DNA from: Coleofasciculus sp. LEGE 07092
Lineage (GTDB): Bacteria > Cyanobacteriota > Cyanobacteriia > Cyanobacteriales > Coleofasciculaceae
Length of the DNA stretch: 32,000 bases
NCBI RefSeq assembly: GCF_015207375.1
Contig: NZ_JADEWY010000043.1
Coordinates: 12,200-44,199, forward strand
Reading direction: 5' to 3'
Shown: positions 17,072 to 17,849 of the stretch, piece by piece
How the letters are laid out: every line of letters starts with the position of its first letter
Position numbering within the stretch: the stretch's first letter is position 1
The notes under the pieces: generated by a model
The model's database searches: none
Told to the model about the DNA's origin: nothing
Seen by the model: the letters and a program-made list of their open reading frames with translations, nothing else
Program-made: the position numbers and the translations under genes

Positions 17072-17482
17072 GTGACAGACGAAACTAGACAGGAAATAGC
17101 CCGACAACTTGCTAGACAACTAGCATCAAGAACAGTAATTCCCCCCAGGAGATCTGGTCAAGGCTTTAAAACATTTGGTGAATTCAAAAGAACAATGGGC
17201 GCTGCTGGTACAGGACAAGCTTGGCATCATATCGTCGGACAAACCACCTCAAATTTACAACGCTTTGGTGCCGAATCCATTCATAATACAGGTAATCTTG
17301 TCAGACTCCCCCATGGGAAAGGTTCAATTCATCAGGAAATTAGCAATTTCTACAATTCATTACAACCCGATCTAACTGGCTTATCGAATATCAACGTTAG
17401 AGAGTGGCTCAACACTCAGTCTTTTAAAGAACAACAAGACTTTGGCATTCGAGTTATTCGAGCTTTTGGAGGAACAGTTTAA
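17072..17482 (+). CDS. Stand-alone HNH/EndoVII-fold toxin nuclease of the WHH/AHH type
   Basis: GQAWHHIVGQ...FGAESIHNTGNLVRLPHGKGSIHQEISNFY fits the [AW]HHI[IV]-x(n)-N-x-x-N-[LG]-V-x-LP-x(n)-H-x-x-I-x-x-x-Y pattern of WHH/AHH polymorphic-toxin nuclease tips. The GTG start immediately follows an in-frame TAA, so no N-terminal delivery domain is possible. Confidence 0.55.
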   Translation: MTDETRQEIARQLARQLASRTVIPPRRSGQGFKTFGEFKRTMGAAGTGQAWHHIVGQTTSNLQRFGAESIHNTGNLVRLPHGKGSIHQEISNFYNSLQPDLTGLSNINVREWLNTQSFKEQQDFGIRVIRAFGGTV

Positions 17483-17778
17483 TGCTTACCCTAGACGTAC
17501 AAGCTATTTTAGATTCAATTCCAACTGAAGTCCGTTGGCAAGATATTGTAGAGTTCAACAAACTCGACAAGCGTGTCGCCATAGCCAATGACCTTTGTGC
17601 CAATATTATTGGTGTGAATGAAAGCTACATCGAATGGTGTCCCAATGATGAACCCCCAAGCCGTTTGGAAACCCTAACTTGGTGGTGGGTTGTCCGCCCA
17701 GATTTGGGAGCAGCAATAGCAATTGAAGCGCCTCAAGAACTCAAAGAAATTATTGGTCAGTACATCCTACAAAACTAG
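17482..17778 (+). CDS. Putative cognate immunity protein
   Basis: This 98-aa acidic ORF starts at an ATG that overlaps the toxin's TAA by 1 nt (TAATG), the classic toxin-immunity coupling. No family recognised. Confidence 0.45.
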   Translation: MLTLDVQAILDSIPTEVRWQDIVEFNKLDKRVAIANDLCANIIGVNESYIEWCPNDEPPSRLETLTWWWVVRPDLGAAIAIEAPQELKEIIGQYILQN

Positions 17779-17783
17779 ATGAA

Positions 17784-17849
17784 GTTGGCAGCGGATGGGG
17801 TAACGGATGTAACGGATAAGTTATTGAAATTCCCGATAAGCCATCCGTA
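17784..17849. repeat. MITE-like palindromic element, copy 3 (compact)
   Basis: Sequence is gttggcagcggatggggtaacggatgtaacggataagttattgaaattcccgataagccatccgtaag, with ACGGAT/ATCCGT arms. It may also act as a terminator hairpin for the cassette. Confidence 0.7.

Follow-up and report, generated by a model that had tools for sequence, protein, structure and literature searches.

Why should a domain of the kind that normally forms the tip of a very large secreted toxin be encoded by a small gene of its own, with nothing attached to it? The question is raised by a stretch of 32,000 nucleotides from Coleofasciculus sp. LEGE 07092 (contig NZ_JADEWY010000043.1, positions 12,200 to 44,199), which we refer to as the window and in which positions are numbered from its first letter. 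Near its middle lies open reading frame A (ORF-A), encoding 136 amino acids, followed by ORF-B, encoding 98. Sequence homology identifies ORF-A as a stand-alone version of a polymorphic-toxin tip that is widespread but unnamed in the libraries we searched. Our preferred interpretation of the pair, to which we assign a probability of roughly 0.6, is an autonomous, promoter-bearing toxin–immunity cassette, in which a probable metal-dependent nuclease is neutralized by a co-translated partner and which behaves as a mobile module resembling toxin–antitoxin (TA) systems. The cassette has the following parts.

17021-17028: HIP1 site GCGATCGC, just upstream of the cassette leader.
17033-17071, plus strand: conserved cassette leader, ending in an in-frame TAA (17069-17071); recognized by DNA similarity and alignment of upstream regions.
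17072-17482, plus strand: ORF-A, a stand-alone toxin-domain protein of 136 amino acids; identified by homology and an AlphaFold2 (AF2) model.
17072-17155, plus strand: N-terminal extension of ORF-A (residues 1–28), clade-specific, consisting of a helix (residues 3–18) and a Pro/Arg-rich linker.
17216-17353, plus strand: predicted beta-beta-alpha-metal core of ORF-A (residues 49–94); identified by AF2 secondary structure and invariant residues.
17482-17778, plus strand: ORF-B, the presumed cognate immunity or antitoxin protein of 98 amino acids; identified by position and intactness.

ORF-A starts with a GTG codon (17072-17074) directly after the in-frame TAA, and its own TAA stop codon has one base in common with the ATG of ORF-B (TAATG at 17480-17484), an overlap through which ORF-B is presumed to be translationally coupled to ORF-A. 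The leader contains a -10-like TAAGAT (17035-17040), followed by a 5' leader of ~30 nucleotides. ORF-A has neither a signal peptide nor a transmembrane segment. Its first 28 residues form a single helix and a linker, which match nothing in Pfam or NCBIfam, and no trafficking domain is fused to it. An earlier note on this DNA had described the two reading frames with their lengths, GTG start, and 1-nucleotide overlap, and had pointed out that the stop codon directly before the start leaves ORF-A without a delivery domain; it had also quoted a signature of WHH-I-V, N-x-x-N-L-V-x-LP, and H-x-x-I-x-x-x-Y. All of this holds. The signature corresponds to W51-H52-H53-I-V, N72-T-G-N75-L-V-R-L-P80, and H87-Q-E-I-S-N-F-Y94 of ORF-A, and its residues are conserved well above what chance would give.

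Neither ORF-A nor ORF-B had a single match in Pfam, NCBIfam, PADLOC, or PHROGs at E≤10. A word-indexed search with ORF-A returned ~100 “hypothetical proteins” of 136 amino acids from filamentous cyanobacteria, 70–92% identical to ORF-A, along with a few longer and more distant proteins. An exhaustive profile search, with matches counted as clusters at 50% identity, detected the ORF-A domain in 2,053 clusters at E≤1e-3, including 1,454 at E≤1e-10. The domain spans residues ~29–136 of ORF-A (~110 residues), and it ends no more than 12 residues from the C-terminus of the protein in 145 of the 151 best matches, which range in length from 95 to 2,787 amino acids. In the long relatives, RHS_repeat is combined with SpvB/TcdB_midN/FG-GAP, DUF6531, or DUF6443; an inverse-autotransporter beta-domain is present in one of them. 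Among species-level genomes, the domain is encoded at the 3' end of reading frames of up to >2,100 codons in, among others, Bacteroidota, Myxococcota, Planctomycetota, Chloroflexia, Firmicutes/Clostridia, Lysobacter, and Pasteurella; a 558-amino acid protein with a signal peptide, encoded on a Priestia megaplasmid, also ends in it. At one metagenomic locus (L009), an Rhs/Tox-SHH gene and its immunity gene are followed by a cassette of the ORF-A domain; at another (L007), the domain comes after a YD-shell fragment with DPxGL at its end; and at a Chitinophagaceae locus (L070), it occupies one of several cassettes that open with an Rhs-core motif. This homology to Rhs-type C-terminal domains indicates that ORF-A is a stand-alone copy of a genuine toxin tip, in agreement with the relationship to large secreted polymorphic toxins that had been proposed from the sequence motifs.

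Seven residues are invariant among the 151 diverse relatives (G43, H52, H53, Q57, N75, H87, and S96), and six others are at least 96% conserved (W51, N61, K39, Y94, R110, and Q121). ORF-A retains every family-invariant residue. Residues 1–28 are kept in all cyanobacterial copies and, among other relatives, were seen in protein P0253 only. P0253 (328 amino acids) is a cyanobacterial-type copy with the sequence WHHLVGQ and the same N-terminal helix; the domain is N-terminal in this protein and is continued by a C-terminal extension of ~190 residues in place of the stop at residue 136. Distant relatives of the toxin domain, at 44% identity, were observed on two IMG/VR viral contigs (L090 and L091). 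Nachmias et al. described nine new toxin domains; in a comparison made by text only, none was recognized as a match to the ORF-A family.

The sequence motifs and the structural model together make an HNH (beta-beta-alpha-metal) fold, and hence the identity of a nuclease that would cut DNA, probable for ORF-A. The AF2 model (pLDDT 92.4) has a strand AWHHI (residues 49–53), a helical insert of 22 residues, N75 with a strand LVRLP (76–80), and a helix (86–94) that includes H87. Judged from secondary structure, this order of strand, insert, strand, and helix fits the beta-beta-alpha-Me order. Faint traces of the HNH class were also detected by sequence. The Pfam model HNH_2 was matched below threshold by 3 of 34 diverse family members (best E 0.023), WHH (PF14414) was touched by one of the 34 (E 0.43), and the relative P0360 matched HNH_2 at E 0.004 (17.3 bits vs a cutoff of 21) over a span that runs exactly from WHH to H87. 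For the ORF-A of the window itself, the hidden Markov model (HMM) search that the earlier note had recommended yielded no Pfam WHH, AHH, LHH, SHH, or other HNH model at E≤10, so that by the criterion the note had set for itself the HNH label is unproven, although it is still the best guess. Foldseek returned many nonsignificant BFVD matches annotated as HNH endonuclease, covering 45–60 columns at 3–4 Å. An hhalign comparison with the DUF2380 protein of locus L005 gave nothing.

Two described classes of toxin tip come closest in layout: Tox-AHH, with the signature “[AG]HH, N, H, H, Y”, and Tox-WHH, with the signature “WHH, L, H, HxG” (Zhang et al. 2012, PMC3482391). Like the ORF-A domain, both form the C-terminal end of Rhs toxins and of other secreted toxins, and an immunity gene comes next. 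The Tox-AHH signature is matched in order and rough spacing by HH 52–53, N75, H81, H87, and Y94 of ORF-A, and the predicted strand-strand-helix order agrees as well. However, ORF-A has W in place of A/G, only 65% of family members keep H81, and the AHH model (PF14412) had no match at E≤10 to ORF-A or to sets of 23 and 34 relatives. With Tox-WHH, ORF-A has in common the WHH at 51–53 but no conserved HxG, which is replaced by H87-x6-Y94-x-S96. The ORF-A domain is set apart from both classes by its length of ~110 amino acids, a GFxSFxxFK motif on its upstream side, and an extended helical portion toward the C-terminus, and the immunity families listed for these classes (SUKH, Imm28, Imm37, Imm11, and others) are not its partners.

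The colicin E9 and E7 DNases provide a further comparison. As predicted for ORF-A, they have an HH pair ending the first strand, an Asn before the second, and a His in the helix; they also have an F-K-S/T-F-x-x-F-K/R motif upstream of the HNH core, and they are neutralized by a small immunity protein (Im9 or Im7) expressed along with them, as is presumed for ORF-B. They differ from ORF-A in spacing, in the unrelated fold of the immunity protein, and in the possession of translocation and receptor domains. The motif in ORF-A, G-F-K-T-F-G-E-F-K-R at residues 30–42 (17159-17197), resembles the FKSFDDFRK helix of the colicin enzymes; within it, F35 is conserved in 94% and K39 in 97% of the family.

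The same pair of 136 and 98 amino acids occurs in ~40 cyanobacterial species as a discrete unit of ~750 bp. The window resembles 40 cyanobacterial loci at the DNA level over ~17033-17774 only; the similarity starts between 17021 and 17073, and in most of the 40 at ~17033. The closest locus, also from Coleofasciculus (L011, 92.8% identical), matches the window over 17021-17812 only and has unrelated flanks. In an alignment of 33 upstream regions, ~40 nucleotides before the start codon are conserved and comprise a TAnnAT box and the leader; Okeania-type loci have a full TTGACA-17-TATAAT promoter. A simple promoter scan called no promoter at the cassette leader, and promoter/terminator and Rfam scans of 16000-18500 returned nothing informative. 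The cassette is spread through filamentous, mat- and bloom-forming cyanobacteria such as Microcoleus, Okeania, Nostocales, and Coleofasciculus, and some genomes have two or three copies: two lie 4 kb apart at L024, and short contigs of Microcoleus anatoxicus carry three. A check for plasmid carriage found no cyanobacterial plasmid match for the cassette.

This conservation bears directly on the idea, raised in the earlier note, that the pair is a displaced orphan. We take such an orphan to be a silent spare tip with its immunity gene, kept in reserve until recombination joins it to the 3' end of some full-length polymorphic toxin gene elsewhere in the genome. Orphan rhs-CT/rhsI and cdiA-CT/cdiI pairs resemble ORF-A and ORF-B in consisting of a small toxin-tip gene and an immunity gene without a delivery domain, and the noncyanobacterial relatives at L009, L070, and L007 are exactly such cassettes. 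But orphan cassettes sit downstream of a parent gene and keep a pre-toxin part, whereas the cyanobacterial unit has its own promoter, its own N-terminus, and no recognized parent gene. Its start codon, leader, and -10 box are conserved, its N-terminus is unmatched in any large protein, and purifying selection is strong over the whole length of 136 codons in comparisons across orders. No long cyanobacterial reading frame with the domain was found among the 80 best genome loci, and the only longer form of the cyanobacterial type, P0253, carries the domain at the wrong end for a toxin tip. In the window, the gene upstream of the cassette encodes an NB-ARC/tetratricopeptide repeat (TPR) protein rather than a full-length toxin, no pre-toxin junction sequence is shared, and there is no Rhs, CdiA, or LXG gene. 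For a conserved stand-alone unit with its own N-terminal helix, present in ~40 species, we regard a displaced-orphan origin as very unlikely. Of the options put forward in the earlier note, this one is not supported, and a TA-like module and a free effector are still live.

Purifying selection acts on both members of the pair, with a median dN/dS of 0.12 for ORF-A and 0.15 for ORF-B, and the two genes co-diverge (r = 0.94). The N-terminal helix region of ORF-A is under a constraint similar to that on the domain (dN 0.148 vs 0.131). ORF-A is disrupted by nonsense mutations, frameshift, deletion, or truncation in 11 of 41 copies, vs 0 of 40 for ORF-B (Fisher p = 4.5e-4). Loss of ORF-A is tolerated and loss of ORF-B is never seen, as would be expected if ORF-A were harmful in the absence of ORF-B; the bias has the form expected for a toxin with an essential antidote. 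In a nearest-neighbor dN/dS comparison of the constraint on ORF-B after ORF-A decay, dS was saturated.

The same data weigh on the proposal that the pair has been domesticated, with toxicity lost in cyanobacteria and a housekeeping or regulatory role taken up by ORF-A together with ORF-B. Conservation is indeed unusually high for a toxin–immunity pair, at 70–93% identity across orders, and the Glu usual in the family at position 56 is Gly throughout the cyanobacterial clade. Position 56 presumably aligns with the noncatalytic Pro of canonical “DHIxP” HNH motifs. It is K, N, P, T, G, or A in Rhs-borne copies, and we rejected E56G as an inactivating change since the position varies in these bona fide toxins; all invariant residues are kept. 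The repeated recent knockouts of ORF-A, with none of ORF-B, do not suit a domesticated pair, and a patchy, multi-copy distribution in unrelated contexts argues against housekeeping. We therefore consider domestication most unlikely.

ORF-B has ~110 homologues, nearly all of 98 amino acids and from the same cyanobacteria as the ORF-A copies. The residues R31, V32, E51-W-C-P54, P59, W67, W69, and P73 are invariant, and the AF2 model is an alpha/beta structure (pLDDT 96). ORF-B lies directly downstream of ORF-A in all 39 assessable cyanobacterial loci, mostly with the 1-nucleotide overlap. Outside cyanobacteria the place directly after the toxin domain is taken, in 35 of 39 loci, by a gene for a ~118-amino acid DUF2019/HEAT-like protein (Pfam PF09450), related to the structural-genomics PDB entry 2i9c. 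Such partners were seen among loci L051-L089, L005, L007, L070, and L092, and none is present in the window or at any cyanobacterial locus. The partner outside cyanobacteria is thus a different protein, so the antidote appears to have been swapped. The two partner types also meet. At L070 the order is toxin, DUF2019-like gene, ORF-B-like gene, and next orphan toxin; at L004 an ORF-B-like gene comes after a DUF2019-like one, and there is no toxin; and ORF-B-like genes stand alone at L003 and on a Flammeovirga replicon. The genes upstream of the distant ORF-B homologues at L003 and L004 were tested as relatives of ORF-A and are not. Because ORF-B-like genes lie beside toxin or DUF2019-like genes in other phyla, the ORF-B family is, on this comparison of gene neighborhoods, part of the set of immunity genes associated with this toxin, and it has become the sole partner in cyanobacteria. 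DUF2019 itself is likely to act as an immunity protein, as judged from its position; a literature search for DUF2019 in this role, within the library available, found no report.

A precedent for two unrelated immunity proteins acting on one toxin exists in the Tde5 DNase of the Pseudomonas aeruginosa H4 type VI secretion system, encoded with Tdi5a and Tdi5b. A HEAT-like immunity protein occludes the Tde5 active site, and a second, unrelated immunity protein binds at an exosite and belongs to a family found mostly outside toxin loci; Tde5 has a FIX trafficking domain and ~139 homologues (Liu et al., J Biol Chem 2026, PMC13392607). The DUF2019/HEAT-like and ORF-B-like genes of L070 parallel this pair, a likeness drawn by description only, whereas the cyanobacterial ORF-A/ORF-B pair has no HEAT-like gene at all. 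PDB entry 12FS was matched neither by ORF-A profiles nor by the DUF2019-like query.

Taken as a toxin–immunity cassette, the locus would work as follows. ORF-A and ORF-B would be transcribed as a two-gene unit of ~750 bp from their own promoter and leader. ORF-A would be a metal-dependent nuclease with a beta-beta-alpha-Me (HNH/EndoVII) fold with a Tox-AHH-like layout, in which H53 would serve as the general base, the metal would be held by H52 and H87 (possibly also H81), and N75 would be the structural Asn. Coupled translation of the shared mRNA would yield ORF-B, which would neutralize ORF-A by binding to it. In filamentous cyanobacteria the pair would then act as a mobile addiction or defense module of the TA type, and not as a spare tip. 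In several respects it fits the description of type II TA systems, being a small, mobile bicistronic operon with its own promoter and a patchy distribution. Toxin-first systems such as HigBA, HicAB, and MqsRA likewise are pairs of small genes that overlap and have a promoter of their own, are spread patchily and in multiple copies over unrelated loci, and often have a pseudogenized toxin. They differ in that the fold of ORF-A comes from the polymorphic-toxin repertoire and ORF-B has no detectable DNA-binding domain.

Several observations weigh against this interpretation. A toxin-first order combined with a conserved N-terminal helix is not typical of type II TA systems, and every characterized context of the domain is an exported toxin, so that action inside the cell is something we infer. 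No curated HNH model was matched above threshold by ORF-A or by the relatives scanned. A Foldseek search of the PDB and BFVD with the ORF-A model found no neighbor at E≤0.001, sequence-profile searches of the PDB with ORF-A profiles gave nothing meaningful, and the 15-residue FKSFxxF[KR] motif was the sole stretch that hhalign aligned with the colicin E9 DNase, at a probability of 20%. ORF-B has no known immunity fold, with no sequence neighbor in a PDB profile search and no structural neighbor in a Foldseek search of the PDB. ORF-B and 23 relatives also had no helix-turn-helix, ribbon-helix-helix, or AbrB match in Pfam, although the absence of a match is not proof. Lastly, the ORF-A pseudogenes look young (omega still ~0.15), so the retention of ORF-B does not discriminate between a TA module and an exported toxin.

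The latter would be an exported free effector: ORF-A delivered by way of its N-terminal helix, through a contractile injection system, a route linked to a type I secretion system (T1SS), or some other candidate route, with ORF-B as an immunity protein that protects kin in mats. Every noncyanobacterial relative of ORF-A is part of an exported polymorphic toxin, and the 28-residue N-terminal helix is conserved, constrained like the domain, and absent elsewhere. ORF-B-type genes without a toxin occur in other phyla, including one beside a DUF2019-like gene, and in Microcoleus the cassette lies behind large RTX (T1SS-type) proteins and beside a pair resembling a C39 peptidase and its partner. Against this, ORF-A lacks a signal peptide and a transmembrane segment, no linkage to secretion genes is conserved across genera, in which the flanks are unrelated, the RTX adjacency is confined to a single syntenic Microcoleus island, and neither secretion nor Rhs genes are present in the window. 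On balance, we view an exported effector as possible but doubtful. A more specific form of it seems unlikely, namely that ORF-A is the cargo of a delivery route new to polymorphic toxins, with residues 1–28 as the loading or export tag, perhaps for contractile injection systems or T1SS-type exporters that filamentous cyanobacteria possess, and that ORF-B is a kin-protecting immunity protein of new fold that has replaced the ancestral HEAT-like one.

The Microcoleus island itself comprises L016, L018, L019, L024-L026, L029, L031, L032, L034, L043, L048, and L049. Here the cassette lies 30–2,300 nucleotides downstream of the RTX proteins, on the same strand, and a block of common reading frames lies downstream of the cassette. 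The RTX proteins have HemolysinCabind repeats with Lipase_3/Lipase, integrin-beta-type VWA, or DUF11 domains. A second small gene pair in Microcoleus, at L020, L026, L027, L032, L034, and L038, is located ~1–3.5 kb from the cassette in varying relative order. It encodes a papain-fold protein of ~150 amino acids resembling Peptidase_C39 (27.7 bits vs a cutoff of 22) and an overlapping partner of 108 amino acids without a Pfam match. The C39-like gene is frameshifted at L020 and L027 and absent at L038, and the gene for the 108-amino acid partner is intact, the same pattern of toxin decay as seen for ORF-A.

In the window, the cassette is preceded by the NB-ARC/TPR gene and followed by genes for a GT2 protein, DUF2064, NadA, and others; a search of the window for secretion, Rhs, CdiA, and LXG genes found none. 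At L001 and L002 the neighbors are other housekeeping genes. The NB-ARC/TPR gene (13452-16433, plus strand) encodes 993 amino acids with NB-ARC and TPR_12/TPR_10 domains and ~14 near-identical TPR units of 42 residues. We take the protein to belong to a class of NTPase-TPR conflict or signaling proteins that is common in multicellular cyanobacteria. At the Potamolinea locus L012, a TPR-repeat gene ends ~90 nucleotides upstream of the cassette; its presence near the cassette here and in the window may reflect residual synteny or coincidence.

On either side of the cassette in the window is a copy of a repeat.

16949-17005, minus strand: left repeat copy, outside the cassette.
17783-17839, plus strand: right repeat copy, directly after the ORF-B stop codon.

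Each arm has 57 nucleotides; they are 75% complementary and in inverted orientation, and the 19-nucleotide core of the repeat has 3 matches in the window vs 0 expected. A third copy occurs at 16463-16502. Together with the copy at 16949-17005, it forms an inverted pair (~45–55 nucleotides) that brackets a 21-nucleotide tandem array at 16678-16918 (11.5 copies, 87% matches). As a whole, 16463-17005 looks like an element of the miniature inverted-repeat transposable element (MITE) type with a tandem-repeat core, and the mechanically called reading frames at 16617-17003 (minus strand) and 16696-16887 (plus strand) are translations of the array and not genes. Elsewhere, a degenerate relic of the repeat is present on one side of the cassette at L011, and no copies were found in other genera. 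We therefore rejected the repeats as cassette ends, or as the boundaries of a MITE-bounded composite element: in other genomes the cassette is not bracketed by them, and they are local decoration, not part of it. The earlier note had rightly placed copies on both sides, but it treated them as bounding the cassette and missed the third copy. After the right repeat and before the convergent GT2 gene, a G-rich, heptamer-like run (GGGGAGT GGGGAGT GGGGAAT GGGATAT GGGGTGT) occupies 17846-17890; such short tandem repeat DNA is typical of cyanobacterial intergenic space.

The ingredients themselves have been described before: toxin tips, immunity genes, orphan cassettes, and TA modules. What is new here is a very large, uncurated toxin-tip family (>2,000 clusters in many phyla) with a probable His-Me core, the identification of a DUF2019/HEAT-like protein as its usual partner, the replacement of this partner in cyanobacteria by an unrelated protein of 98 amino acids, and a conserved, self-sufficient stand-alone form across filamentous cyanobacteria. 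Two unrelated partner families are thereby defined for one tip, and DUF2019 gains a likely function. The system is small (136 + 98 amino acids), and the structures of both proteins are predicted with high confidence. It suggests that the warhead of a giant toxin can become a tiny, self-sufficient, spreading cassette, with a bearing on strain competition and genome stability in cyanobacteria and possibly on phage defense. Were ORF-A instead the cargo of an export route, the cassette would mark a kin-discrimination system in cyanobacterial mats.

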